Shown here piece after piece: positions 23,740 to 34,153 of a stretch of 64,000 nucleotides of DNA. This DNA comes from an uncultured Fibrobacteraceae bacterium (GTDB taxonomy: Bacteria; Krumholzibacteriota; Krumholzibacteriia; LZORAL124-64-63): the NCBI GenBank assembly GCA_964559455.1, contig CAZLHO010000006.1:17627-81626 (forward strand), given 5' to 3'. Positions within the stretch are counted from its first letter, which is position 1; each line of letters begins with the position of its first letter. The notes beneath the pieces were generated by a model. It made no database searches, was not told where the DNA came from, and was given only the letters and a program-made list of their open reading frames with translations. The position numbers and the translations under genes were made by a program.

Positions 23740-24429
23740 TTAGAGCACGAGCCGATACCCCACCCCGTGCACCGTCAGGATGTGCTCGGGCTGGGCCGGA
23801 TCCCGCTCCAGGGCCTTGCGCAGGCTCAGGATGAAGTTGTCGACGGTGCGGGTGGTCGGGTAGGCCTCGAAACCCCAGATGCGGTCCAGGATCGTGCGGC
23901 GCGAGACCGGCTCGCCGGCGAATTCGGCGAGCAGGCGCAGGATCTGCGATTCCTTCTCCTTCAGCTCGACCTTGCCGTGGGGGCCGTGCGCCACCAGGGT
24001 GCGCAGGTCGATCCTGGATGAGCCGACCCGCAGCAGGTCGGTCTTGGCCGAGGTGCGCAGCCAGTCCTCGCGGCGGAAGATGCCCTTGATGCGGGCCAGC
24101 AGCTCGCGCAGGTTGAAGGGCTTGACGATGTAGTCGTCGCCGCCCTCTTCGAGGCCGCGGATGCGGTCGTCGTCGCGCCCCCGGGCGGTCAAAAACAGCA
24201 CGGGGACGCGGTCGCCGGATTCGCGGACGCGCCGGCAGAAGGCGAAGCCGTCCATGCCCGGCAGCATGACGTCCAGCAGGATCAGGTCGACCCCGCCGCG
24301 TTTCCAGTAGTGCAATCCCTCCTCGGCCGACTCGGCCACGACCGGATCGTGGCCCTCCAGTTCGAGGTTGACGCGCAGCCCGTCGGCCAGGTGCTGGTCG
24401 TCCTCGACGACCAGGATGCGCTTCTTCAT
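23740..24429 (-). CDS. OmpR-family response regulator
   Basis: Start ATG at 24429 (MKKRILVVEDDQHLADGLR...). Receiver domain with D in LILLDVMLPGMDG. C-terminal winged-helix domain (TVHGVGYRLV). Confidence 0.85.
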   Translation of the reverse strand: MKKRILVVEDDQHLADGLRVNLELEGHDPVVAESAEEGLHYWKRGGVDLILLDVMLPGMDGFAFCRRVRESGDRVPVLFLTARGRDDDRIRGLEEGGDDYIVKPFNLRELLARIKGIFRREDWLRTSAKTDLLRVGSSRIDLRTLVAHGPHGKVELKEKESQILRLLAEFAGEPVSRRTILDRIWGFEAYPTTRTVDNFILSLRKALERDPAQPEHILTVHGVGYRLVL

Positions 24430-25547
24430 GCCCTCTCCTCCGTCGTTTCGGGCGGCGAGGCGGCGGGCAGCCGCAGGGTGAACACGCTGCCGCGGCCTTC
24501 CTCGCTCTGCAGGTCGACGTCCCCGCCCAGCAGGCGGGCGTTGTGCTCGACCAGGTAGAGGCCCAGGCCCGAGCCCGAGGTCGGTCCCTTCACGGCGCCG
24601 TCCCGGGGCTCGAGGCGGACGAAGCTCTCGAAGACGCGGCGGCGGTCGCGGCGGGGAATGCCGGGCCCCCCGTCGCCGACCGACAGCAGCAGGCGGCGGC
24701 CCTCGCGGCGCAGGGCGACCTTCACGCGCGCCGGCGGCGACGAATACTGGACCGCGTTCTGCACCAGGTTGCGCAAGGCCAGGGCCAGCACTTCGCGGTC
24801 TCCGGCCAGGGCGTGGCCGGAGGGCAGGTCCGTCTCCAGGAGGGCGCCGGCGCGCTCCAGGAAGCCGTGCATCTCGTCCAGCACCTCGGCGGCGGCGACG
24901 CCGGGGTCGAAGATCCCGCGGGGCCCGGGCGCGGTCGCCTCGCCGCGGCTCAGCGCGAGGACATGGTCGACCAGGGACTCCAGGCGCTGCACGTCCTCCA
25001 CCAGGCCGTCGGTCATGCGCCGCCGGTCCGCCTCCTTCAGATCGGGGCGGGCCAGCGTCTCGGCGTAGAGGCGCAGGCTGGCCAGGGGCGTGCGGAACTC
25101 GTGGGTGGCCCCGGCCAGGAAGAGCTCGCGGGCGCGCTTGAACTGGCGTTCGCGGCGCAGCGCCTCGGTCAGCACGACGGTGCCGGCCGCCAGCAGCATC
25201 AGGAAGAAGACCCCCTCGCCGGCGAACATGCGACGGCGGCGCTGGGCCTCGCCTCGGACGGCTTCCTGGGCCTCGGCGGTGATGCGGATCTGCCGGCCCA
25301 CGGCCGTGTTCTCCATTCTGAGGTGGGGATAGTGGTCGCGGAGGAAAGCGTCGGGATCGGAAGCCAGTTCGGGGTTGGCCTCGAGCACCATCGAGGCGTG
25401 CAGCAGGTCCGTGGCCATCTGATGCTGCCGCAGGCGCTCGTAGGTCTCGGCCTCGCGCGACAGGAAGACGAACCACCACACGCCCAGCGAGACGAGCAGC
25501 ACCACCAGCACGCCGTAGATCAGACCCAGTCGCAGCGGGAACCGCAT
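24426..25547 (-). CDS. sensor histidine kinase
   Basis: One N-terminal TM helix. H-box ATHEFRTPLASL. N/G boxes (NLVQNAVQYS; GSGLGLYLV). ATGA overlap with the regulator gene. Confidence 0.8.
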   Translation of the reverse strand: MRFPLRLGLIYGVLVVLLVSLGVWWFVFLSREAETYERLRQHQMATDLLHASMVLEANPELASDPDAFLRDHYPHLRMENTAVGRQIRITAEAQEAVRGEAQRRRRMFAGEGVFFLMLLAAGTVVLTEALRRERQFKRARELFLAGATHEFRTPLASLRLYAETLARPDLKEADRRRMTDGLVEDVQRLESLVDHVLALSRGEATAPGPRGIFDPGVAAAEVLDEMHGFLERAGALLETDLPSGHALAGDREVLALALRNLVQNAVQYSSPPARVKVALRREGRRLLLSVGDGGPGIPRRDRRRVFESFVRLEPRDGAVKGPTSGSGLGLYLVEHNARLLGGDVDLQSEEGRGSVFTLRLPAASPPETTEERA

Positions 25548-25734
25548 GGAACGTCCTTTCAGCCGGGCGCCGCTGCCGGATCCGGAGGCGCCGCCCAGGC
25601 ACTATAACAGGAGGCGGGCGCGTTGGCAGCGGCGACCTGCGGGACGGCGGCGGCATTTTGCTTGCGGACCCGGGGGCGCGGGCGCAATCTCGCCGGCTGG
25701 AAGGGATTCTCCGGGGACCTGCGGGAGCCGAGCC

Positions 25735-27219
25735 TTGAGCGAGCCGAAACAGCAGAGCGACATCTTTCCGCCGCGGTTCGCGGTCGCGGCCGCGCTCGTC
25801 CTGGCGTTGCTGGCGCAGGCTCTGCTCTACGCCCGGGGATTCCACGCCCTCTCCGCCGACGACAGCGCCCGCGTCCTGGCGGCCCGGGGGCACGGCCTGT
25901 CGGCCCTGTGGCAACCGGGTTGGTGGCCGCCGCTGCCGGCCATGGTTCAGGGTCTGCTCCTCGAACTCTGGCCCGATCTCTTCCGGGCGCCCCGGCTGCT
26001 CGCCGGGCTTGTCGGGCTGGCCGTGGTGCCTGCGGTGGGCCGGCTCGCCGCCCGGCTCTTCGCCGACCGCGCGGTGAGCGGCGCGGCCGTCGTGCTGGCG
26101 GCCCTCTACGCGCCGCGGCTGGTTTTCGCGATGCTGCCCCTGGCCGAGATCTGGCTCACCCTCTTCGCCGTGCTCGCCGCCGCCGACACCGCCGCCTGGC
26201 TGCGCGAGGACAGCCCCGGACTGCTGCGCCGCGCCGCCGTCTGGAGCTTGTTCGCGGCGATGTCCCGCTACGAGGGCTGGCTGCTGGCCGCGGCCCTCGC
26301 CATGCTGGCGCTGGTCGCCTGGCGGCGCGGCGTGGCCGGACGCCGCCTGGGCGGATCCGATGCCGCGGGCACGGTCCTCGTCGCCGCCGTCTTTCCCGTC
26401 TACTGGCTGGCGGCCGCCGCGCTCGGCGGCCGGCTGGCGCTGCTCGGGGAGGCCTCCCGCCGCTACGACCTGCTTCAGGGGGGCGCTTCGGCGGTCGTCT
26501 GGAGGCATACCCACCTCTTCCAGTTCCTGCGGCAGGCGGCGACGACCCCGATCGTCGCCGGAGCCGCGGCGTTGACGGTCTGGTGGCTGCGCTCGTCCCG
26601 CGTGCGCTGGTGGTCGTCGCTGATGCTCTTCCCACTGCTGGGCATGTCCGCCTTGGCGCTGGCCACGCACAGCCTGCCGAGCCACAACTGGGGACGGCTG
26701 GCGGCCCCCTGGCTCGTGATGCTGCTGCCCTTCCTGGCCTGGCTGCTGGAAAAGGCGGCCGCGGCCCTGGCGCCGCCCGGTCCGGGACGGCGCGCGCTGC
26801 TGGCCTGCGCGGTGGTCGTCTTCCTGGCCGGTTTCTGGGACGGCGCCGCTTCGGTCGCGGCGCGCAGCGACATGACCCGGGACGACCTGCGCGCGGGACG
26901 GGCGGCCGCGGCCATGGTCGCCGACGGCCCGGGCCGCATCCTCCTGGACTCGAGCCACTGGAGCCACCTGCACCTGCAGGTCGCTTCGGGGATTCCCGAC
27001 CGTTTCCTGCTCAACACCGGCTACGACCCCCGCCTTCCCGGGCCGTCGATCCTGCCCGACGAGGCGCTGCCCACCCCGGAAGCCCTGCGCAATCTGGGCC
27101 TGGACCTGCTCGTCTTCCGCGATCCGGAGCGCGTGCGGGCGTTGGCCGCGGCCGGCCTGGAGCAGGCCGCCGCCTTCGGGCCCTGGCGCCTGTTCCGGAT
27201 CCCGCCCGCCGGTTCCTGA
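25735..27219 (+). CDS. polytopic membrane protein, putative GT39/ArnT-like glycosyltransferase
   Basis: At least 10 predicted TM helices with an N-terminal loop carrying conserved acidic residues (ALSADDSARVLAARG). Start placed at the in-frame TTG 25735 (GGGAG RBS), because the ATG at 25546 would overlap the divergent kinase start. The start is uncertain. Confidence 0.4.
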   Translation: MSEPKQQSDIFPPRFAVAAALVLALLAQALLYARGFHALSADDSARVLAARGHGLSALWQPGWWPPLPAMVQGLLLELWPDLFRAPRLLAGLVGLAVVPAVGRLAARLFADRAVSGAAVVLAALYAPRLVFAMLPLAEIWLTLFAVLAAADTAAWLREDSPGLLRRAAVWSLFAAMSRYEGWLLAAALAMLALVAWRRGVAGRRLGGSDAAGTVLVAAVFPVYWLAAAALGGRLALLGEASRRYDLLQGGASAVVWRHTHLFQFLRQAATTPIVAGAAALTVWWLRSSRVRWWSSLMLFPLLGMSALALATHSLPSHNWGRLAAPWLVMLLPFLAWLLEKAAAALAPPGPGRRALLACAVVVFLAGFWDGAASVAARSDMTRDDLRAGRAAAAMVADGPGRILLDSSHWSHLHLQVASGIPDRFLLNTGYDPRLPGPSILPDEALPTPEALRNLGLDLLVFRDPERVRALAAAGLEQAAAFGPWRLFRIPPAGS

Positions 27220-27443
27220 TCTTCTCCGGCATCGTGTCCCGCGGCGATGACGGCCCGGGCGTCGCGCGCATCCCGGCGGCGACGGTCCGCGACCGCTCCG
27301 GAAAGCCGGCCGCCGCCCGCGATCGCCGTCGCGCTGCGGTCCTCCTTCCCTTCCGGCCTTCGCGCCGGCGTCGGCACCCTCGTTGCAGCGGGGCGCATCG
27401 TGTCGCGTCGTGAGCCAGGGATTCCGGCCCGGGGAGGTGAATG

Positions 27444-27638
27444 ATGAGCGAGGTCGAGTGGAGGGAGATCGAGAGCACCCTCGAGAGGATGGGCGTGGAG
27501 CAGGTCCAGGAGAGGCTCGAGATCAGTCCCGTGATCGTGGGCGGCGCGCCGGGCGTCGACGGCTGCGACTGCAGCTGCGACTGCACGTTGCCGCCGCTGG
27601 AGCCCTATTCGCGGGCCCAGACCTTCTTCAACGGTTGA
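27444..27638 (+). CDS. small peptide with an acidic helical N-terminal region, a GG motif and a Cys/Asp-rich C-terminal core (precursor-peptide-like)
   Basis: MSEVEWREIESTLERMGVEQVQERLEISPVIVGG | APGVDGCDCSCDCTLPPLEPYSRAQTFFNG. GGAGGT RBS 6 nt upstream. Immediately followed by a perfect GC hairpin. Confidence 0.45.
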   Translation: MSEVEWREIESTLERMGVEQVQERLEISPVIVGGAPGVDGCDCSCDCTLPPLEPYSRAQTFFNG

Positions 27639-27645
27639 TGCGCGC

Positions 27646-27673
27646 GCGGCCCGGGCTTCCTCGCCCGGGCCGC
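27646..27673 (+). promoter_or_regulatory. perfect 11-bp-stem hairpin between the small-peptide gene and the downstream genes (attenuator-like; no U-tract)
   Basis: GCGGCCCGGGC-ttcctc-GCCCGGGCCGC, 8 nt after the peptide stop and 13 nt before the next ATG. Confidence 0.5.
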
Positions 27674-27686
27674 GCTCCGGAGGGGC

Positions 27687-28826
27687 ATGCACCAGGCGGA
27701 CGTCCTGCCGACGGCGGGGGAGAGCTGGGAACTCTGGAACCTGAGGGCGCTCTTTCCCGGCGCCGGCGTTGCGGACCTGCGGGACCTGGCCGACCGCCGG
27801 CGGCGGATCGTCGGCCTCGAGAGAAAGACCTTCGGCCGCGGCCTCGAGGCCAACCGCGGAATCGTGGCCGGGGCGGGGCTGTTCCTGGGCGCCCATCCGG
27901 AACTGCGCAGCGGCCTGATCGCGACCCTGCACCTGGGGCCCTACGCCTTGGTGCCCGCCCTCTACGCGCTGGCCGGCCTCGACCCGGTGGTCGTGGTCGA
28001 CCGCGCGGCGCTGGAGCGGCTGCGGGATCAGGCCGAGGCGCACCTGGCCGCTCTGGGCGCGTCGGGACGCCTGCAGTGGCTCTGCGTCGACGAGCCGGTA
28101 TTCGCCGGGCGGCTGCTGCGCGCGCTGCGGGGGGGCGGCGTGGCGGTGGTCTACCTGGACGGCAACGGCGGCAGCGGGGGCCCCGCGGCCACGCGCGAGC
28201 GCGGGATGCGCTACGAGCTGCCCGGGCGTGCGATCCGTCTGCAGACCGGTCTGGGGCGGCTGCTGCCCCGGGCCGGCTGCGCCGTCCACGGCCTGTTGAC
28301 GCGGTGGTCGGATGACGGAAATCTGGATTGGGAGCCCGGACCCGCCTGGCGCTGGCCGCGCGACGCCTCCGCCGACGAGATCACCACCGCGCTCTACGAT
28401 TGGGCCTTCACGGCCATCCGCCGTCATCCGGAACAATGGGCTTTCTGGGGGATGCTCGGGACGTCGAGCGAATGCTTCCGGTCGGACCGGCTCGAGGCCG
28501 GACCGGGCGGCAGGTCGCGCCGAGGGCGTTGCGCCTTCTTCTGCGACTGCCTGAGGACCTGCCCCGATGCGGTGCGCGCGACGTTGGCCGGAGAGGTCGA
28601 AGTCTGGCCCGGGGATGTCCTGGTCGATCTCGCCAACCAGCATTTCTACGCCGCGGAAGGACTGCGGGACGACGACCTCGAGGACCTGCGCTGGGGCGGC
28701 TCGCCGTCGCTGGCCGACCTGCGCCGGCGTCGCGGCGGTCGTTGGGTCGAGTTCCACCTGCTGCGACTCTACGTGCTGGATCTGGTCGCCCTGGAGATCG
28801 GCGGCCCCGGGACCGCGGGCGGGTGA
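27687..28826 (+). CDS. divergent LpxL/HtrB-like (LPLAT-superfamily) acyltransferase-fold protein
   Basis: Ordered parallels to lipid A lauroyl/myristoyl transferases: HLGPYAL for HFGNWE, VAVVYLDGNGG for ILPDQD.G, and a C-terminal IRRHPEQWAFWGML for RRYPDQWLWLHRRW. The acidic residue of the HX4D/E motif is absent. Confidence 0.4.
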   Translation: MHQADVLPTAGESWELWNLRALFPGAGVADLRDLADRRRRIVGLERKTFGRGLEANRGIVAGAGLFLGAHPELRSGLIATLHLGPYALVPALYALAGLDPVVVVDRAALERLRDQAEAHLAALGASGRLQWLCVDEPVFAGRLLRALRGGGVAVVYLDGNGGSGGPAATRERGMRYELPGRAIRLQTGLGRLLPRAGCAVHGLLTRWSDDGNLDWEPGPAWRWPRDASADEITTALYDWAFTAIRRHPEQWAFWGMLGTSSECFRSDRLEAGPGGRSRRGRCAFFCDCLRTCPDAVRATLAGEVEVWPGDVLVDLANQHFYAAEGLRDDDLEDLRWGGSPSLADLRRRRGGRWVEFHLLRLYVLDLVALEIGGPGTAGG

Positions 28827-28975
28827 GCAGAGAGCCCGCTCCGGTTCGTCGTCCCCGCCGAGATCGGCGTTTCATCCTGCACGCCCATCCCGAAGGGCCC
28901 TGGCTGCTGCAGGCGGGGGGGCGTTCCTATGCCGTGCCCTCGGCGCTGGGGCGCAGGTTGCGTCCCCTGAGGGGA

Positions 28976-29989
28976 ATGGTGCCCACCGAGGAGGCGCTGG
29001 CCTCGCTGTTGCCCGGGCGGGCGCCGCATCAGGTCAGGGCCCTGCACGCCCTGCTGGCGGGGGACGATGGCGGCCGCGGTGAGCGGGAACCGCAATCGAG
29101 GGGCGCCCTCAGGCTCCGACCGAGGGCGACCCTCGTGCCGGCCCGCGCGGTGCACCGTGCGGCGCGCCGTCTCGCGGGGTTCACCACGTGGCCCTGGCTG
29201 CTGGGGGCGTTCCTGTCCGGGGCGCTGGGCTACGCGGCGGGTCTGGTCGCGCTCCGGGGAAGCGGGCTCGACCCGCAGGGTCCGCCGGGCCTGGCCGCCG
29301 CGGCGCTGCTGGTCGTGCTGACCGCCCTGATCCATGAATTCGGCCACGCCGCCGCCCTGGCCGACGCCGGTTATCCGCCCGGGTCCGTCGGCGCGGGACT
29401 GCTGGTCCTGTTGCCGGTGCTCTACTGCGACGTCACGGCCGTGGCGCTGCTGCCGGGACGGGCCCGCCTGCGCATCGACGCCGCGGGCGCGGCGTGGCAG
29501 CTGGCCGCCGGCGGCGCGATGGCCCTGGCGGCGGCCGGGGTCGGGAGCCGGGTCTTCCCGCCTTCGGCCTGGGCCGCAGGCGCGGCCGCGATTCTGAAGA
29601 CCGCGTCCCTGGGCGTGCTGGCGGCCGCGGTCTGGAGCCTGCTGCCCCTGCCGCGATCCGATGGATGCTGGCTGGCCTGCGACGCCCTGGGGGTGCGCGA
29701 CCTGGACGCCCCGGCGCACAGGGGGCGGGGGGGGCGCGTCCAGGACCGTCGTCGTCTGGCCTGGCTGTGGGGCCTGCGCGGCCTGCACATCCTCTTCTTT
29801 TCGGCCCTCGCGGGGGCGGCCCTGGTCCAACTGCGGCGTCTGGAACCGGCGCTGGCCGGTTGTTCCCCGCTTCTGCGAGCGGCTGGTCGGGTCGGCCTGG
29901 CGGTCGTCGGCACGGTGGTCGCCGCGGTCGCCCTGCGAAGGGCCTGGCGTCTGCTGAGGGCTGCGTTGGCGGACGCCGGTCGTCTTTGA
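28976..29989 (+). CDS. integral-membrane zinc metallopeptidase (HExxH in a TM helix; M50/site-2-protease-like)
   Basis: LTALIHEFGHAAALADAG inside a hydrophobic helix. Multiple TM segments. Downstream LLPVLYCD may supply the third ligand. Start taken at ATG 28976; GTG 28934 is an alternative. The upstream extension to 28328 overlaps the previous gene in another frame. Confidence 0.5.
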   Translation: MVPTEEALASLLPGRAPHQVRALHALLAGDDGGRGEREPQSRGALRLRPRATLVPARAVHRAARRLAGFTTWPWLLGAFLSGALGYAAGLVALRGSGLDPQGPPGLAAAALLVVLTALIHEFGHAAALADAGYPPGSVGAGLLVLLPVLYCDVTAVALLPGRARLRIDAAGAAWQLAAGGAMALAAAGVGSRVFPPSAWAAGAAAILKTASLGVLAAAVWSLLPLPRSDGCWLACDALGVRDLDAPAHRGRGGRVQDRRRLAWLWGLRGLHILFFSALAGAALVQLRRLEPALAGCSPLLRAAGRVGLAVVGTVVAAVALRRAWRLLRAALADAGRL

Positions 29990-30053
29990 CGCGGACGGCG
30001 ACGGCGTGCTAGCTTCCTCGAAGGGGGGATTCATCAACTCAGGAGGGGATGTC

Positions 30054-30812
30054 GTGTTCGCCCACGCGCTCACCCGTCTGCCCGGTCCCGACTTCGCCGA
30101 CGGTTTGACCACCGCCGGCCTCGGGATCCCCGACCACGCCCTGATGCTTCGCCAGCACGCCGAGTACGTGGCCGCCTTGCGCAGGCTGGGGGTCGCCGTC
30201 GAGGTGCTGGACCCGCTGCCCGGCTATCCCGACGCCCACTTCGTGGAGGATGTGGCCGTCGTCACCTACGACTTGGCCGTGCTCACCCGCCCCGGCGCCG
30301 ACTCCCGCCGCGGCGAGGTGGCCGCGATCGAACCCTTCCTGGGCGCCCGCCGGCGGCTGGCCCGCATCGAGGAGCCCGGGCGGCTCGACGGCGGCGACGT
30401 GATGCATGTCGGCCGGAGCTACTTCGTCGGTCTCTCGGAGCGCACGAACGAGGAGGGGGCCGCCCAGCTCTGCCGGATCCTGGCCGACGAGGACTTCTCC
30501 TGCGTCATGGTGCCCGTCGGCGAGGGCCTGCACCTGAAGTCCGGGGTGAACCACGCCGCCTGGGACACCCTGCTGTTGACCGAGGACTTCATCGACCTGC
30601 CCCAGTTCCGGGACTACGACAAGATCCTGGTCCCTGCGGAGGAATCCTACGCCGCCAACACCCTGCTGCTGAACGGGACCATCCTGACGCCCGCCGGTTT
30701 CCCCCGCACGCGGGCCGAACTGCAGAAACTGGACCTGCCGGTCGTGGAGCTCGACATGAGCGAGGCGCGCAAGATGGACGGCGGCCTGACCTGCCTGTCG
30801 CTGCGCTATTGA
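30054..30812 (+). CDS. N(G),N(G)-dimethylarginine dimethylaminohydrolase (amidinotransferase superfamily)
   Basis: DDAH-like sequence with a C-terminal catalytic Cys (MDGGLTCLSLRY). Start assigned to GTG 30054, 7 nt after AGGAGG; the ATG at 30006 is an alternative. Confidence 0.65.
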   Translation: MFAHALTRLPGPDFADGLTTAGLGIPDHALMLRQHAEYVAALRRLGVAVEVLDPLPGYPDAHFVEDVAVVTYDLAVLTRPGADSRRGEVAAIEPFLGARRRLARIEEPGRLDGGDVMHVGRSYFVGLSERTNEEGAAQLCRILADEDFSCVMVPVGEGLHLKSGVNHAAWDTLLLTEDFIDLPQFRDYDKILVPAEESYAANTLLLNGTILTPAGFPRTRAELQKLDLPVVELDMSEARKMDGGLTCLSLRY

Positions 30813-30886: not shown

Positions 30887-31564
30887 TCAGGCTGTGGGTT
30901 CGTCGAAGAAGTCCATCAGGTCCACCGGCATCACCACGGACGAGGCGATGTTCGACATGTGGCCGAGGATGCGCTTGTAGAAGCGCAGGCCCAGCACGAT
31001 GCAGACGGCGTCGTTGGTGCGCATGTCGCCGCGGGTGATCGCCGCGATGCCCGCCTCGGTCTGCAGCTGCAGGGTCCTGGTGCGCGAGATCACGTCCCGC
31101 GCCCGGGATTCGTCGCTGAGCACGAAGGCGTCGCGCGTGACCGAGAAGAGACCGGCCGCCGCGTCGGCGGTCTCGCCCATGTGCTCTCGGTAGAGGGCGC
31201 GGTCGATGTCTGCGGGCAGCAGCTTGTGGGCCACGTCGTAGAGGTTCTTCACGTAGTCGCCGATCCGCTCGCAGTCCTTGACGACGTTGGTGAAGATCAA
31301 GGCCGAGGCGACGTCGGTCTTGGCGCCCGTCGACAGCCGCAGCACGACGCTGCGCCGGATCTCCCTCTCCATCAGGTTGATGCGCTTGTCGCGGTCGTAG
31401 ATCGAGGCCTGGGCCTCGCTCTGGTCGGCGCCGTTGAAGATCATCAGGCTCGCATAGTCGAACATGGCGGCGGCCAGGTCCAGCATCTCGCCGATGCTGG
31501 CGGCGTTCTTGCCGCTCCAGTCGTCGCTCTTGAAGAGATCCTTCAGGGATCCGAAGACGGCCAC
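30887..31564 (-). CDS. PhoU-domain (DUF47-like) protein associated with the Na/Pi transporter
   Basis: 225-aa helical protein with two PhoU-like repeats, directly downstream of nptA as in canonical NptA-PhoU pairs. Confidence 0.55.
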   Translation of the reverse strand: MAVFGSLKDLFKSDDWSGKNAASIGEMLDLAAAMFDYASLMIFNGADQSEAQASIYDRDKRINLMEREIRRSVVLRLSTGAKTDVASALIFTNVVKDCERIGDYVKNLYDVAHKLLPADIDRALYREHMGETADAAAGLFSVTRDAFVLSDESRARDVISRTRTLQLQTEAGIAAITRGDMRTNDAVCIVLGLRFYKRILGHMSNIASSVVMPVDLMDFFDEPTA

Positions 31565-31578
31565 GTTTCCACTCCCGG

Positions 31579-32754
31579 TCAGGGGCGCTGGAGCACCCGC
31601 GAAATGACGACGAAGATCAGGGGCAGGACGAAGAATACGCCCAGCATATAGTAAAGCGCGAAGGCCTTGTTGCGCGAGGTCCGTAGGGCCAGCAGGCGGG
31701 CCAGGCGGATCGGTACCTTCCGCAGGGGCTTGAAGGGGTAGATGATGGCGATGCCGGTGAGGTTGAAGAGCAGGTGCACCAGCGCCACCGTCACCGCGGC
31801 GACGTTGCCGGTCAGCGAGGCCAGCAGGGCCGTCACGGTGGTGCCCACGTTCGCGCCCAGGGTCACGGCCAGGGCCGTCGTCAGGGGCACGATGCCGGCG
31901 CCGATCAGCGGCACCATCAGGCTGGTCGTGATCGAGCTGCTCTGGACCATCACCGTCACGACCATGCCCAGCAGCATCGCCAGCGGGCCGCTGCGGCCCA
32001 GGTACCTGTTGAAGGCGCCCTCGGCCCGCACCACGACCAGCCGGCGCATCAGCCGGGTCAGCATCGTCAGGGCGAAGAAGAGGGAGGCCAGGGAGATCAC
32101 CAGCATCAAGGTCCCGGCCAGCGCGTCCGGCAGGGGCAGCGGATCGATGAGGGCATGCTGGAAGAACTTGACCGCGGGTTTGACGGCGGCCTTGACCGGG
32201 CCGTGGAACTCCACGCCCTGGGTCCCGGTCAGGTGGGTCGACAGCCAGCTCGCCGCCCGCTCCAGGTAGTGCGTCGCCTGCTCCAGCGGGAAGAGGATGC
32301 AGATCGTCATCAGGTTGAAGAAGTCGTGCATCGTGGCGCCGGCGAAGGCGCGGCGGAACTCGGCGCGGCGGCTCATCGAGCCCATGGCGACGATCGTGTT
32401 GGTGACCGTCGTGCCCATGTTGGCCCCCATGATGATGGGGATGGCGCCGCGCACGGTCAGGGCGTCCACGGCCACCAGGCCGACCACGATCGAGGTCGTG
32501 CCCGACGAGCTCTGGATCAGCGATGTGGCCAGCAGGCCGATCATCAGGCCGACGACCGGGCTGGCGGTGGTCGTGATCAGGGCCTCGCTGAAACCGGCGC
32601 CGAAGGCCTTGAAGGCCGCGCCCATCAGGGAGATCGCGAAGAGGAAGAGGTAGAGCAGCGCCAGCAGGGCGGTCGTGCGCAACACCGAGCGCAGGACGGA
32701 GCCCTGGACCGGGCTGTATGACCCGGAGGCGGGGTTGGCCGGGCTGAGTGGCAT
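31579..32754 (-). CDS. nptA: Na+/phosphate cotransporter family protein
   Basis: Start ATG 32754 (MPLSPANP...). Two inverted repeats with QSSS motifs (IQSSSGTTSI; VQSSSITTSL) typical of NaPi-II. ~392 aa. Confidence 0.8.
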   Translation of the reverse strand: MPLSPANPASGSYSPVQGSVLRSVLRTTALLALLYLFLFAISLMGAAFKAFGAGFSEALITTTASPVVGLMIGLLATSLIQSSSGTTSIVVGLVAVDALTVRGAIPIIMGANMGTTVTNTIVAMGSMSRRAEFRRAFAGATMHDFFNLMTICILFPLEQATHYLERAASWLSTHLTGTQGVEFHGPVKAAVKPAVKFFQHALIDPLPLPDALAGTLMLVISLASLFFALTMLTRLMRRLVVVRAEGAFNRYLGRSGPLAMLLGMVVTVMVQSSSITTSLMVPLIGAGIVPLTTALAVTLGANVGTTVTALLASLTGNVAAVTVALVHLLFNLTGIAIIYPFKPLRKVPIRLARLLALRTSRNKAFALYYMLGVFFVLPLIFVVISRVLQRP

Positions 32755-32920
32755 GGCGATCCGGGCTCGAGGACGGTGAGTGGCGGACGCGACTCCGCCG
32801 TGACGACCGGAAGCTACCGTTCCGGACGGGCCGGGTAAAGGTGATTTTGCGCCGCGCCGTGATGATGGGCTATAGTGGCCTTCCGACGGTGTCGAGAAGC
32901 TCTTCCGGGAGGAGGCCGGC

Positions 32921-34153
32921 GTGATCGCTCTGGACGAAGCCCTGCGGCGGCTGGACGAGGCCTGCGCCCCGCGCCTCGCGCCGGCGGAGCCCGCGTCGAC
33001 CCGCGAGGCGGCCGGCCGGGTGCTGGCCGCCGACGCCGTGTCGCGTCTGGACATCCCCCCCTTCGACCGCGTGACGATGGACGGCTACGCCATCCCGCCG
33101 GCGCCGGAGGGCCGTCTCTACGAGGTCGCCGGCGAGGTCCGGGCGGGACAGGCGGCCTCGGCGCCGCTGCGGCCGGGCGCCGCCCTCAAGGTCATGACCG
33201 GCTGCGTCGCCCCGCCCGGGACCGGGCGCGTGGTGATGGTCGAGAAGGCCCGCGAGCGGGACGGCCTGGTCGAGATCCTGGATGGGGGCGGGCCGCGCAA
33301 CGTGGCCGCCCGGGGCGAGGACGTCCGCGTCGGGCAGGTCGTCGTTCCCGCCGGCGCCCGGCTGACGCCCCGCGACATCGCCGGCCTGCTGGCCTGCGGC
33401 GTGGCCGAGGTCTCGGCCCGCGCCGTCCCGCGCGTGACCGTGATGGCCACCGGCGACGAGCTGGTCGCCGGCGACCGGGATCTGCCTCCGGGCGCGATCT
33501 ACGACGCCAACACCCCCCTGCTGGCGGGGCTCCTGGCGGCCCACGGCTATGCGGCCCGGACCGAGCCGCCCGTGCCCGACGATCCGGCCGCGACCCGGGA
33601 TGCCCTGGCCGCCGCCCTCGCCGTCTCCGACCTGGTCGTGCTGACCGGCGGAGTTTCGATGGGCGACCACGATCACGTGCCCGGCGCCATGAAGGAACTG
33701 GGCCTGGAGATCGTCTTCGACCGGGTCGCGGTCAAGCCCGGCAAGCCGGCGACCCTGGCCGCGGGGCCGGCGGGCCTGGTGCTGGGGCTGCCCGGCAACC
33801 CCGTGTCGGCTTTCGTGGGCTGCCATCTCTACGTGCTGCCCGCCCTCTCCCGGCTCCAGGGCCGGCGCCTGAGCCCCCGCTTCCTGGAGCTGCGCCTGGC
33901 CGAGGCCTTCGGCGGCGGTCCCGAGCGCCGCCTGCGCCTGCTGCCGGCCCGCCTCGACGCCGAGGCCCGCGTCGTTCCCCTGGCCTTCCACAGCTCGGGA
34001 CATCTGCACTCGCTGCTGGCTGCCGAGGGGCTGGTCCGGATCGATCCCGGCGTCTCGGGGCTGCGCGCCGGCGACCGGATCGACTTCTGGCCCCTGACGC
34101 CGCGGGCCTATCTGTCCCACGCCGGCGACGCCGGGACGGAGGTTGCGCCATGA
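32921..34153 (+). CDS. moeA: molybdopterin molybdotransferase
   Basis: MoeA domain architecture: GGVSMGDHDH motif region and a C-terminal MoeA domain. 410 aa. Confidence 0.85.
   Translation: MIALDEALRRLDEACAPRLAPAEPASTREAAGRVLAADAVSRLDIPPFDRVTMDGYAIPPAPEGRLYEVAGEVRAGQAASAPLRPGAALKVMTGCVAPPGTGRVVMVEKARERDGLVEILDGGGPRNVAARGEDVRVGQVVVPAGARLTPRDIAGLLACGVAEVSARAVPRVTVMATGDELVAGDRDLPPGAIYDANTPLLAGLLAAHGYAARTEPPVPDDPAATRDALAAALAVSDLVVLTGGVSMGDHDHVPGAMKELGLEIVFDRVAVKPGKPATLAAGPAGLVLGLPGNPVSAFVGCHLYVLPALSRLQGRRLSPRFLELRLAEAFGGGPERRLRLLPARLDAEARVVPLAFHSSGHLHSLLAAEGLVRIDPGVSGLRAGDRIDFWPLTPRAYLSHAGDAGTEVAP

Follow-up and report, generated by a model that had tools for sequence, protein, structure and literature searches.

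Daptide biosynthesis offers the closest described parallel to the locus reported here. In that pathway, the leader peptidase MpaP consists of an RRE fused N-terminally to an intramembrane site-2 protease (S2P), and the leader motif ELExMEAP is bound by this RRE-protease (PMC10036551). The YydH/LiaK epipeptide proteases (NCBIfam NF058609) are likewise HExxH membrane proteases that serve RiPP maturation, in clusters defined by a radical-SAM epimerase. Fatty-acylated RiPPs, namely selidamides, lipolanthines, goadvionins, lipoavitides and aphotorhaptins, are made by GNAT enzymes (PMC8784127; PMC13647313), and a 2026 overview describes all the fatty-acylated ribosomal peptides that it covers as acylated by GNAT-type enzymes (PMC13647313). 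Acyltransferases of the LPLAT fold, such as PatA and LpxL/LpxM (PF03279), have lpx or PIM genes as neighbours and glycolipids as acceptors. In PatA, His126 is the general base and Glu200, supplied by an E-x-D-L-T-R block, is the charge-relay acid (PMC8519569). Searches of the open literature on LPLAT/PF03279-type RiPP enzymes, on Krumholzibacteria gene clusters and on RiPPs combining an arginase with a fatty-acyl-AMP ligase (FAAL) gave no account of a system like the present one. The locus described below most likely makes a fatty-acylated peptide with an LPLAT-type enzyme, an enzyme type absent from described ribosomal peptide pathways.

A conserved three-gene locus

The window, which is the whole 64-kb stretch of DNA analysed, derives from an uncultured Fibrobacteraceae bacterium (contig CAZLHO010000006.1, assembly GCA_964559455.1). 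It carries, in this order and all on the + strand, a peptide gene, a hairpin, a gene for a 379-aa protein and a gene for a 388-aa HExxH protein, with the following features.

27444..27638, +, predicted precursor peptide gene, 64 aa (65 aa from the other ATG, at 27441)
27477..27539, +, putative leader recognition block TLERMGVEQVQERLEISPVIV, where conservation within the peptide is highest
27564..27584, +, Cys block CDCSCDC of the core, from comparison of homologous peptides
27644..27675, +, perfect GC hairpin, 13-bp stem and 6-nt loop, separating the peptide stop from the next ribosome-binding site (RBS)
27687..28826, +, acyltransferase-like protein of PatA/LpxM fold (LPLAT, HtrB-type), 379 aa, bearing an RRE-like domain at its C-terminus
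27930-27932, +, H82 of the 379-aa protein
28158-28166, +, D158-G-N160 of the 379-aa protein
28518..28799, +, RRE (PqqD-like winged-helix) fold domain, residues ~278-371 of the 379-aa protein
28823..29989, +, 388-aa S2P-like intramembrane HExxH metalloprotease, GTG start
about 28868-29062, +, predicted soluble N-terminal ~120-aa RRE-like domain of the protease
29333-29347, +, HEFGH, residues 171-175 of the protease
29657-29671, +, S2P-like SDGCW, residues 279-283 of the protease
29944..29979, +, hairpin resembling a terminator, then TCGTCTTTGA, where the third gene ends, from the terminator scan

The pairing of the peptide with the LPLAT-like gene, singled out in an earlier sequence-only reading, recurs in 38 further species-level genomes: 38 species-representative metagenome-assembled genomes (Krumholzibacteriota-type) and several metagenome contigs hold the same trio. 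The order peptide, LPLAT-like gene, HExGH gene was observed in loci L001, L003, L004 and L006-L008. A small peptide ORF lies immediately 5' of the enzyme genes in all related loci with upstream sequence, and the HExxH protease gene is present in all those with enough downstream sequence; the trio is thus kept in every related locus with enough sequence, which is more than chance would give. Its surroundings fall into two differing neighbourhoods, one Pho-like and the other with DUF2797/Smr, so the trio behaves as a unit. Within the three-gene version of the loci there are no acyl-activating, transporter or immunity genes. In the window and in 12 related loci, a divergent PhoR/PhoB-like histidine kinase/response regulator pair is found on the upstream side of the trio.

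Precursor peptides with a conserved leader and a Cys block

The peptide ORF opens with two adjacent ATGs, and a GGAGG lies 6-7 nt 5' of 27444. As the sequence-only reading had described, the 64-aa product has an acidic N-terminal half, ending ...ERLEISPVIVGG (VIVGG), and a Cys/Asp core, GVDGCDCSCDCTLPPLEPY... Searches of Pfam and NCBIfam with the window peptide gave no match, and no hydrophobic segment was found in it. Comparison of 30 non-identical precursors revealed a common leader consensus, xLxRLGIxELEERLExSPLL, which is more conserved than the core. Each homologue has 2-5 Cys inside a block of 3-8 residues, the exception being one extra C-terminal Cys in L030, and the block begins 11-22 residues past the leader motif, indicating that the spacing is constrained across the 30 precursors. 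Most blocks read CC[VTS]CK (mostly CCxCK); other forms are CDCHCDC in L013, CCCxCVCK, CCNNFCQCK and CHEKC. A Lys adjoins the Cys block in most homologues, and since the window core has none, no acceptor apart from Cys is apparent that could serve all of them. The family thus combines what is expected of RiPP precursors: a short gene, a conserved leader, a distinct core and adjoining maturation enzymes.

The same reading had set the double glycine of VIVGG between leader and core. As a leader cleavage motif this GG is not supported, and double-glycine processing was rejected, since the homologues do not keep a GG at this site; an ABC/C39 peptidase-transporter gene is also absent from the trio loci examined.

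Compared with daptides, the acidic motif ELExMEAP resembles the ELEERLExSP of the short precursors of this family. The present cores are Cys-rich and their tailoring enzyme is of the LPLAT fold, whereas daptide cores are aliphatic and end in an invariant Thr; the C-terminal residues of our peptides are G, Y, F, W, R and others. Daptide clusters also carry an oxidative decarboxylase, an aminotransferase and a methyltransferase (MpaC/D/M), whereas no dehydrogenase, aminotransferase or methyltransferase occurs in the trio, either in the window or in related loci. GNAT-acylated RiPPs have NHLP/Nif11 or lanthipeptide-type leaders, unlike the leader found here, and a Cys cluster is the feature of the present cores. 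The trio holds no GNAT and the window core no Lys, which sets the locus apart from the selidamide type (GNAT acting on Lys or Orn).

A hairpin behind the peptide gene

The sequence-only reading had placed a perfect GC hairpin between the peptide gene and the two larger genes; it is present and conserved, with a stem of 13 bp rather than the 11 bp given there. The arms occupy 27644-27656 and 27663-27675, with a folding energy of -33 to -38 kcal/mol, and the RBS of the 379-aa gene, GGAGGGG, follows on the 3' side at 27678-27684. The hairpin is more stable than 99.97% of the other 44-nt windows within +/-6 kb. A hairpin 0 to +70 nt past the peptide stop exceeds 99% of same-locus windows in stability in 33 of the 38 loci and falls within the top 5% in 37 of them. 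In one subclade it forms a 20-pair stem, 3 pairs of which show compensatory changes. Without a T-run, the element at 27644-27675 was not called as an intrinsic terminator in the terminator scan. Its sole Rfam match, to ftsZ-DE, scored 18 bits against a gathering score of 72 bits and was rejected as chance. A hairpin after the precursor gene is therefore a conserved part of the operon design.

An LPLAT-fold enzyme with a C-terminal RRE fold

The 379-aa protein has the characteristic LPLAT/Lip_A_acyltrans alpha/beta fold, and its best structural matches are PatA and LpxM, both long-chain acyltransferases. No transmembrane anchor was predicted. Against Pfam Lip_A_acyltrans (PF03279) it scored 10.9 bits, below the cut-off of 22.3; several homologues and distant relatives pass the threshold where the window protein falls short. 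Neither the 379-aa protein nor a close-family profile retrieved anything relevant from the PDB by sequence search, and PatA was reached only by a profile widened with distant relatives. The sequence-only reading of an LpxL-like fold lacking the acid of the HX4D/E motif was borne out, in that a PatA/LpxM-type fold was found and H82 is invariant across the family, while position +5 holds A, Q, T or P but no acidic residue in any member. The signature of the family is HxGP[YF] ... YLDGNxG, with an invariant D158 and an Arg/Thr-rich block.

With the widened profile, H82 aligns with the general base His126 of PatA. The segment D158-G-N...T169-R170 matches the PatA block E200-x-D-L-T-R in block order, which is not a residue-level structural superposition. 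Because PatA takes its Glu200 from another block, in which, by block order, the invariant Asp158 would lie here, the missing HX4D acid need not, by analogy, mean that catalysis is lost. The 379-aa protein shares with PatA and LpxL/LpxM the order of sequence blocks, and with PatA the Arg/Thr-rich donor-binding block and, as far as block order shows, an acidic residue in the block that supplies Glu200. It differs from these enzymes in its HxGP[YF] ... YLDGNxG signature, its additional RRE and the lack of an acid at +5. The contexts also differ: lpx or PIM neighbours and a glycolipid acceptor there, peptide and protease neighbours and a presumed peptide acceptor here.

The C-terminal domain, composed of one helix, four strands and three helices, has the RRE fold, as carried by or partnered with RiPP maturases. 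Sequence profiles failed to pick up the RRE domains: Pfam searches with the isolated RRE-like domains gave no PqqD match, and PDB searches with two domain profiles (A6 and A7) gave marginal, uninformative matches only. Compared with each other, the RRE-like domains of the two enzymes gave a moderate match (hhalign probability 51%). The repurposed role that the sequence-only reading had proposed for the LPLAT-like protein gains from this fold, from the adjoining peptide gene and from the neighbourhoods, in which no lpx gene occurs at any locus.

A distant relative of the daptide leader peptidase

The third gene opens with a GTG that overlaps the preceding stop by 4 nt. Its product, taken in the sequence-only reading for an M50/S2P-like membrane metalloprotease, indeed has HEFGH, SDGCW and about 6 hydrophobic, TM-like segments, and the family invariants are HExGHAxAL, D203 and D280-G-x-W. 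It matched NCBIfam daptide_HExxH (NF041824) with E=1.1e-15 over residues 24-370 and profile positions 16-365 of 379, at a score of 57.7 bits, far below the 300-bit equivalog cut-off. As judged from this sequence match, the protease is related, distantly but over its full length, to the daptide RRE-S2P MpaP, in which an N-terminal RRE-like part is joined to an HExxH/S2P part; a similar build is predicted for the window protein. An AF2 model built from 6 sequences was poor (pLDDT 51), with three strands and three helices at the N-terminus. The epipeptide-type role of an HExxH membrane protease in RiPP maturation is the one proposed here, although the radical-SAM epimerase that defines epipeptide clusters is absent from the trio and the window protease did not reach NF058609 in the NCBIfam search. 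Index searches, which gave 6 protease-family proteins and 10 for the fusion protein described below, were not used for claims of distribution, the candidate lists of both being probably flooded by low-complexity Ala/Leu/Gly words.

Fusions and fatty acyl activation in distant relatives

Single-chain RRE-S2P-LPLAT-RRE fusions were observed (P0149, P0093, P0098 and P0142), and peptides of 43-50 aa are encoded upstream of each; in the fused actinobacterial-type systems the cores are not Cys-rich. The L010 and L051 clusters encode peptides with a leader ...ELEDRLEL and a core DRC[TL]CR, together with RRE-S2P, an RRE-arginase-like protein, two LPLAT(+RRE) units and FAAL-ACAD-ACP, the last of which connects the family with fatty acyl groups in activated form. 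Their arginase-like gene and acyltransferases recall the selidamide ksp and pha clusters, in which a peptide arginase occurs with an N-acyltransferase. The proteases of L010 and P0149 match the daptide_HExxH model at 2e-34 and 2e-31, and the L010 protease and P0044 match the YydH/LiaK model NF058609 at 1e-10 and 4e-12, respectively. In the distant locus L052, a peptide, an LPLAT-like gene, a LytS-type kinase and a response regulator stand in an agr-like order. No lpx or glycolipid genes were found in the annotated neighbourhoods of the trio loci or of the distant-relative clusters.

Proposed pathway and alternatives

On the observed gene order and its conservation, folds, motifs, fusions and FAAL-ACP association, the three-gene set is very probably a RiPP-like maturation module. 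By a modest degree we favour acylation as its modification, and we incline to a similar extent towards a pathway in which an RRE-bearing LPLAT enzyme acylates the peptide under leader guidance and the leader is then removed within the membrane. In such a pathway, the post-stop hairpin would probably keep peptide mRNA or expression above that of the enzymes. The 379-aa enzyme would dock on the leader, LxRLGIxELEERLExSPLL, through its C-terminal RRE, and docking would place the Cys block, at its fixed distance, in the PatA/LpxM-type active site. There, His82 would serve as general base, probably polarised by Asp158 as Glu200 polarises the histidine of PatA, and a thioester donor would pass an acyl group to a nucleophile of the core. 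This donor may be cellular acyl-ACP or acyl-CoA in the window system and a dedicated FAAL-ACP in distant relatives. We tentatively suggest Cys as the acceptor; its thiol seems the likeliest, and onward transfer to the adjoining Lys of most homologues is conceivable. The presumably RRE-bearing S2P-like protease may then bind the same leader and cut it off at the membrane, in the manner of MpaP in daptide maturation, so that a small Cys-rich lipopeptide would stay embedded in the membrane or associated with it. Acyl transfer that depends on the leader of a ribosomal precursor, followed by loss of that leader, would also be the logic of the GNAT-acylated RiPPs, which use the GNAT superfamily instead of an LPLAT-fold enzyme with a fused RRE. 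Thioester products would be labile, which we count against the acylation reading.

A RiPP-like module whose LPLAT-fold domain has a task different from fatty acylation is an improbable alternative, in which the domain could perform short-chain acyl or aminoacyl transfer or intramolecular thioester/lactam chemistry, or act structurally or as a chaperone, and the Cys block would mainly serve metal, disulfide or redox functions. The family-wide absence of the HX4D acid and the lack of an acyl-activation gene in the three-gene loci are consistent with it, as are cores such as CHEKCH, CCHCVCK and CDCHCDC, which resemble metal ligands, and a core conservation unusually high for an antibiotic-type RiPP. 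It accounts poorly, however, for an invariant His82, Asp158 and Arg/Thr-rich block typical of thioester-donor-binding LPLATs, for long-chain acyltransferases as the nearest structures, and for FAAL-ACAD-ACP adjoining family members in L010 and L051. A signalling module is compatible with acylation and appears less probable still; here the processed peptide would act in quorum sensing or as an envelope signal, or would be a regulator to which the adjoining two-component system responds, and not an antibiotic or cofactor. The divergent PhoR/PhoB-like pair of the window and 12 related loci, the agr-like order of L052 and the absence of transporter or immunity genes from the three-gene loci would fit such a module, but the other major subclade has no two-component system adjoining the trio, no export route is evident, and the kinase/regulator pair of the window subclade sits with PhoU and a Na/Pi symporter, as in plain phosphate-regulon synteny.

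An ordinary envelope-lipid acyltransferase (for lipid A, PIM-like or ornithine lipids) next to an unrelated protease, the small ORF being non-functional or regulatory, is very unlikely. Public annotations do name some homologues 'lauroyl/myristoyl acyltransferase', PatA and LpxM are the best structural matches, and the window locus lies near phosphate-regulon-like genes; phosphate limitation triggers lipid remodelling. Against this stand a small ORF whose protein sequence, divided into leader and core, is kept in more than 38 species, the RRE fold that the enzyme has in common with RiPP maturases, its fusion to or constant position beside an RRE-S2P of daptide/epipeptide type, and neighbourhoods in which lpx/glycolipid genes nowhere occur. 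A canonical lipid A role was rejected on this neighbourhood, RRE and fusion evidence.

Fusion of a leader-recognition domain seems to have directed the very large lipid A/PIM acyltransferase superfamily to peptide substrates. If leader-guided acylation is correct, the enzyme would define a RiPP class by its HxGP[YF], YLDGNxG and C-terminal RRE signature, which already retrieves hundreds of uncharacterised clusters (the profile hits number 866), and annotations of family genes as 'lauroyl/myristoyl acyltransferase' or 'hypothetical' would be corrected. With its three genes, the trio would be a minimal means of encoding lipopeptides genetically, and its product a conserved peptide of a candidate phylum without cultured biology, possibly with the physiological role that core conservation and vertical inheritance suggest. 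A bolder and rather doubtful version holds that the LPLAT enzyme S-acylates a 'cysteine string' (CCxCK / CDCSCDC) and that the RRE-S2P frees the product into the membrane, in a system inherited vertically and phylum-wide in Krumholzibacteriota-type bacteria. Such a system would parallel, in bacteria and under leader guidance, the palmitoylation of cysteine strings in eukaryotes, and its product would be a membrane-anchored metal/redox cofactor or signal rather than an antibiotic. The family would then be the founding member of a RiPP superfamily of more than 300 clusters at 50% identity, including the protease-acyltransferase fusions and the FAAL-ACP-fed versions.

Downstream, the terminator scan gave 29944..29979 as the sole terminator-like site in 27000-30300, with 0.8 expected from shuffles, so that the evidence for a terminator is weak; the site is the probable end of the operon.

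A compact precursor, acyltransferase-fold and protease operon

Between 27.4 and 30.0 kb of the window (~70% GC) lie three closely packed forward-strand ORFs (the trio): a precursor peptide, a 379-aa protein resembling the PatA/LpxL/LpxM acyltransferases (LPLAT superfamily) and a 388-aa site-2-protease (S2P)-like protein. An earlier sequence-only reading had described this locus, and its description was confirmed with small corrections, all three ORFs and a hairpin being present; the perfect GC stem stood, and its length was revised from 11 to 13 bp.

Features of the operon and the phosphate-type genes around it (window coordinates)
23740-25547, -, PhoB-like response regulator and PhoR-like histidine kinase, divergent, upstream of the trio
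27441 or 27444 (ATG) to 27636-27638 (stop), +, precursor peptide ORF, 64/65 aa, MMSEVEWREIESTLERMGVEQVQERLEISPVIVGGAPGVDGCDCSCDCTLPPLEPYSRAQTFFNG
27644-27675, +, hairpin with perfect 13-bp GC stem and 6-nt loop, starting six nt past the peptide stop
Between hairpin and ATG of the 379-aa ORF, +, ribosome-binding site GGAGGGG
27687-28826, +, 379-aa ORF, ATG start
28823 (GTG) to 29989, +, third ORF, 388 aa, overlapping the preceding stop by 4 nt
29944-29979, terminator-like hairpin and T-run closing the third gene
30887-33054, -, PhoU and Na/Pi symporter, downstream of the trio

A word-indexed protein search returned 38 homologues of the 379-aa protein (37-53% identity), the named ones from Candidatus Krumholzibacteriia MAGs and publicly labelled "hypothetical" or "lauroyl/myristoyl acyltransferase". 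The order small ORF, homologue, ~310-370-aa ORF was present in 6/6 contigs fetched by exact protein look-up. Scanning one genome per GTDB species gave 38 loci, all from uncultured FCB-group MAGs labelled Krumholzibacteriia, Latescibacterota, "Fibrobacteraceae" or "bacterium". A leader-bearing small ORF preceded the enzyme gene wherever upstream sequence was available; downstream, wherever the sequence reached far enough, came either an ORF with HExGH or a region matching the third protein in tblastn. The peptide gene is therefore kept beside homologues of both enzymes, the conservation that the earlier reading had asked about, and lpx genes, its alternative outcome, were not seen as neighbours of the 379-aa homologues. 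In L023 (5071-7822), the LPLAT-like and S2P-like genes are ~1.9 kb apart, a spacing that implies an insertion. One MAG carries the trio locus on each of two contigs (L016 and L049); the peptide N-terminus in L049 is degenerate, and that copy is therefore a duplicate, haplotype or pseudogene.

In the window subclade the trio has the divergent two-component system of PhoR/PhoB type on one side and the genes for PhoU and a Na/Pi symporter on the other, and in the other subclade its neighbours are a DUF2797 gene and Smr/SDR genes; since the same trio occurs in two different neighbourhoods, it behaves as a unit. Twelve related loci have this kinase/regulator pair beside the trio (identities 72-83% and 49-59%), four of them with PhoU as well, so that the operon may belong to a phosphate regulon or be controlled together with one. 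A 557-aa multi-pass membrane protein (25546-27219, +), whose gene separates the two-component system from the peptide gene, has no Pfam or NCBIfam match; it lacks a counterpart in all other fetched loci and so looks like a local insertion outside the module. Directly after the operon lies a dimethylargininase (DDAH)-like gene (30006-30812, +; NCBIfam NF045658, 6e-72, below the equivalog cut-off), which was not found beside the trio in other annotated loci.

Precursor peptides and the hairpin that follows them

Thirty distinct precursors share the block xLxRLGIxELEERLExSPLL, followed by a variable acidic/Gly-rich spacer, a first Cys 11-22 (mostly 16-18) residues past the ERLE[x]S/T motif, a block of 2-5 Cys within 3-8 residues and a Pro/Asp/Gly-rich C-terminal tail of 1-38 residues. 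The Cys block is CC[VTS]CK in most, with CCCxCVCK and CCNNFCQCK also present and CHEKC or CCHDKC in a few; the window peptide and its closest relative (L013) have CDC[SH]CDC. With this conserved N-terminal recognition block, fixed spacing and short reactive core, the peptides have the usual anatomy of a RiPP precursor. Lys directly follows the Cys block in 25/30 peptides, and the window core has no Lys. The leader end had been read as a double glycine, which is unsupported because VIVGG is not conserved (other peptides have SPLLASDDG, SPLLVESS, SPLIPAGGDVQG and others at that position) and no C39 peptidase/transporter is present.

All 44-nt windows of each of the 38 loci were folded. Within 0 to +70 nt of the peptide stop, the structure was stabler than >99% of the other windows of the same locus in 33/38 loci and in the top 5% in 37/38 (the exception being L033); at the window locus, just 0.03% of other windows matched it. 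The hairpin proposed earlier is thus a real feature, exceptionally stable in 33-37 of 38 loci. The stem sequence differs between subclades, and within the CCxCK-IP subclade a 20-pair stem is kept with compensatory changes at three pairs. A clear T-tract is missing from all of the hairpins checked. The structure may serve in partial termination, protect the 3' end of the precursor transcript or impede translation of the enzyme gene. In many public gene calls (the alignment A1 homologues; L004, L006, L027-L030, L035, L038, L039, L045, L047 and L050), the LPLAT-like ORF begins on the peptide stop codon or overlaps it, so that the hairpin is read as a conserved N-terminus, SRSGPSRSSEPDGR. These starts are probably mis-called; alternatively, the hairpin would be part of the 5' coding sequence and hold translation back.

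An LPLAT-fold enzyme with a predicted leader-binding domain

The 379-aa protein matches Pfam Lip_A_acyltrans weakly (E=0.25) and has no NCBIfam match or PDB sequence match; the RiPP enzymes listed for its comparison were TigE, LynD, NisB, MibB, MadB, ThcOx, McbB, MccB, TbtB and TglI. By fold it is an acyltransferase-type enzyme that carries a predicted leader-binding domain of its own, a RiPP recognition element (RRE) assigned at the fold level. Invariant in the family are H82-x-G-P-[YF], Y-L-D158-G-N-x-G, T169-R170, LPGR and R-x-R-T-G, the first of which bears out the earlier remark that the acid of HX4D/E is missing. With a profile widened by distant relatives, H82 aligned to PatA His126. 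The PatA histidine is helped by Glu200 and not by the Asp of its own motif (PMC8519569). Because Glu200 lies in an E-x-D-L-T-R block that corresponds, by block order, to D158-G-N...T169-R170, we regard the 379-aa enzyme as probably active through a predicted His82/Asp158 pair, Asp158 being the putative Glu200 equivalent.

A putative intramembrane protease distantly related to daptide peptidases

The third protein has a soluble N-terminal region of ~120 residues, about six hydrophobic segments, HEFGH at residues 171-175 and SDGCW at 279-283. HExGHAxAL, D203 and D280-G-x-W are invariant in its family and fit the S2P metal-ligand pattern. Nearly the full length of the protein (residues 24-370) aligned to positions 16-365 of 379 in NCBIfam NF041824, the model for the daptide intramembrane metalloprotease (E=1.1e-15), at a score (57.7 bits) far under the 300-bit equivalog cut-off. 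The structure model was poor (pLDDT 51), with three strands and three helices predicted at the N-terminus; in profile-profile comparison, this region gave a moderate match to the C-terminal domain of the 379-aa protein (probability 51%, E=1.5e-4, 41 columns).

The daptide protease MpaP is described as a site-2 protease of the intramembrane type with an RRE joined to its N-terminus, and the daptide leader motif as ELExMEAP (PMC10036551), close to ELEERLExSP of the window family. The window system shares its leader style, and probably this peptidase type, with daptides but lacks the C-terminal Thr and MpaC/D/M, and its protease scores below threshold. Its tailoring enzyme belongs structurally with PatA/LpxL/LpxM, yet is without the HX4D acid, a Pfam threshold score or a lipid-gene context, and an RRE has been added to it. 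GNAT enzymes acylate all the fatty-acylated RiPPs known so far (selidamides, lipolanthines, goadvionins, lipoavitides and aphotorhaptins; PMC8784127; PMC13647313). No description of an LPLAT-type RiPP maturase or of this Krumholzibacteria locus was found in the open literature, and we regard the system as a RiPP-like pathway whose class-defining enzyme has no precedent there.

Distant relatives and a possible acylation chemistry

When 1.84 billion representatives were searched exhaustively with a profile of the 379-aa family, 866 matched at E<=1e-3, of which 317 reached <=1e-10 and 22 reached <=1e-30; among the 129 representatives listed that have 280 aa or more, the HxG motif was present in 124 and a DGNxG-like motif in 117. 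Five distant loci were sampled. Four proteins (P0149, P0093, P0098 and P0142) are single chains with, in this order, an RRE, an HExxH protease, an LPLAT-like domain and a C-terminal RRE-like domain, a Rosetta-stone fusion of window genes two and three. Their loci encode 43-50-aa peptides with the leader ...EV.DRRELFG and also hold CPBP/Rce1-like, FAD-oxidase, MatE or ABC genes. The four-domain chains at L009 (4818-7442), L011 (3710-6814) and L012 (1985-5090) lie downstream of one or two such peptides, whose cores are Ser/Asp/aromatic-rich and mostly Cys-poor, e.g. YYFYSDQFDLSDLFSGTGSSD. Duplicated LPLAT+RRE units occur in P0057, P0058 and the L051 pair.

Elaborate relative clusters
L010, 2011-12073, two LPLAT+RRE units fused
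L051, 1068-10947, two LPLAT+RRE units separate

Both clusters encode a 37-40-aa peptide (leader ...ELEDRLEL, core DRC[TL]CR), an RRE-S2P (daptide_HExxH at 2e-34), an arginase/agmatinase-like protein, with an RRE-like N-terminal extension in L010, and a 1260-aa fatty-acyl-AMP ligase/acyl-CoA-dehydrogenase/carrier protein (FAAL-ACAD-ACP); a CatA-like acetyltransferase is further encoded in L010, and a polytopic membrane protein of 252 aa in L051. They look like a separate, uncharacterised family of lipopeptide RiPPs, in which the Arg flanking the Cys block is possibly converted to Orn. Such a dedicated protein for activating and carrying fatty acids, encoded beside the family, gives the strongest evidence at hand for a transfer of fatty-acyl groups to the peptide by these enzymes.

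In the mechanism we propose, the precursor would be produced in excess and bound at its leader by the RRE of the LPLAT-fold enzyme, whose His82/Asp158 would activate a core nucleophile for attack on an acyl thioester, supplied in the three-gene systems by cellular acyl-ACP or acyl-CoA; the leader would then be cut off by the RRE-S2P at the membrane. Cys is the sole nucleophile kept in all Krumholzibacteriota-type cores and in L010/L051, and the Cys block is adjoined by Lys in most of the former and by Arg in the latter, so it is conceivable, as a speculation, that Cys is acylated first with onward transfer to a neighbouring amine. A physiological role, as a membrane-anchored metal/redox peptide or a signal, is suggested over an antibiotic one by the strongly conserved core, by vertical inheritance and by the absence of genes for export or immunity. 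L052 (3076-6184) encodes, in this order and in one direction, a 34-aa peptide (…TSCGDVFP), an LPLAT-like protein lacking an RRE, a LytS-type histidine kinase and a response regulator; this agr-like arrangement is a hint that the enzyme family may be used in signalling.
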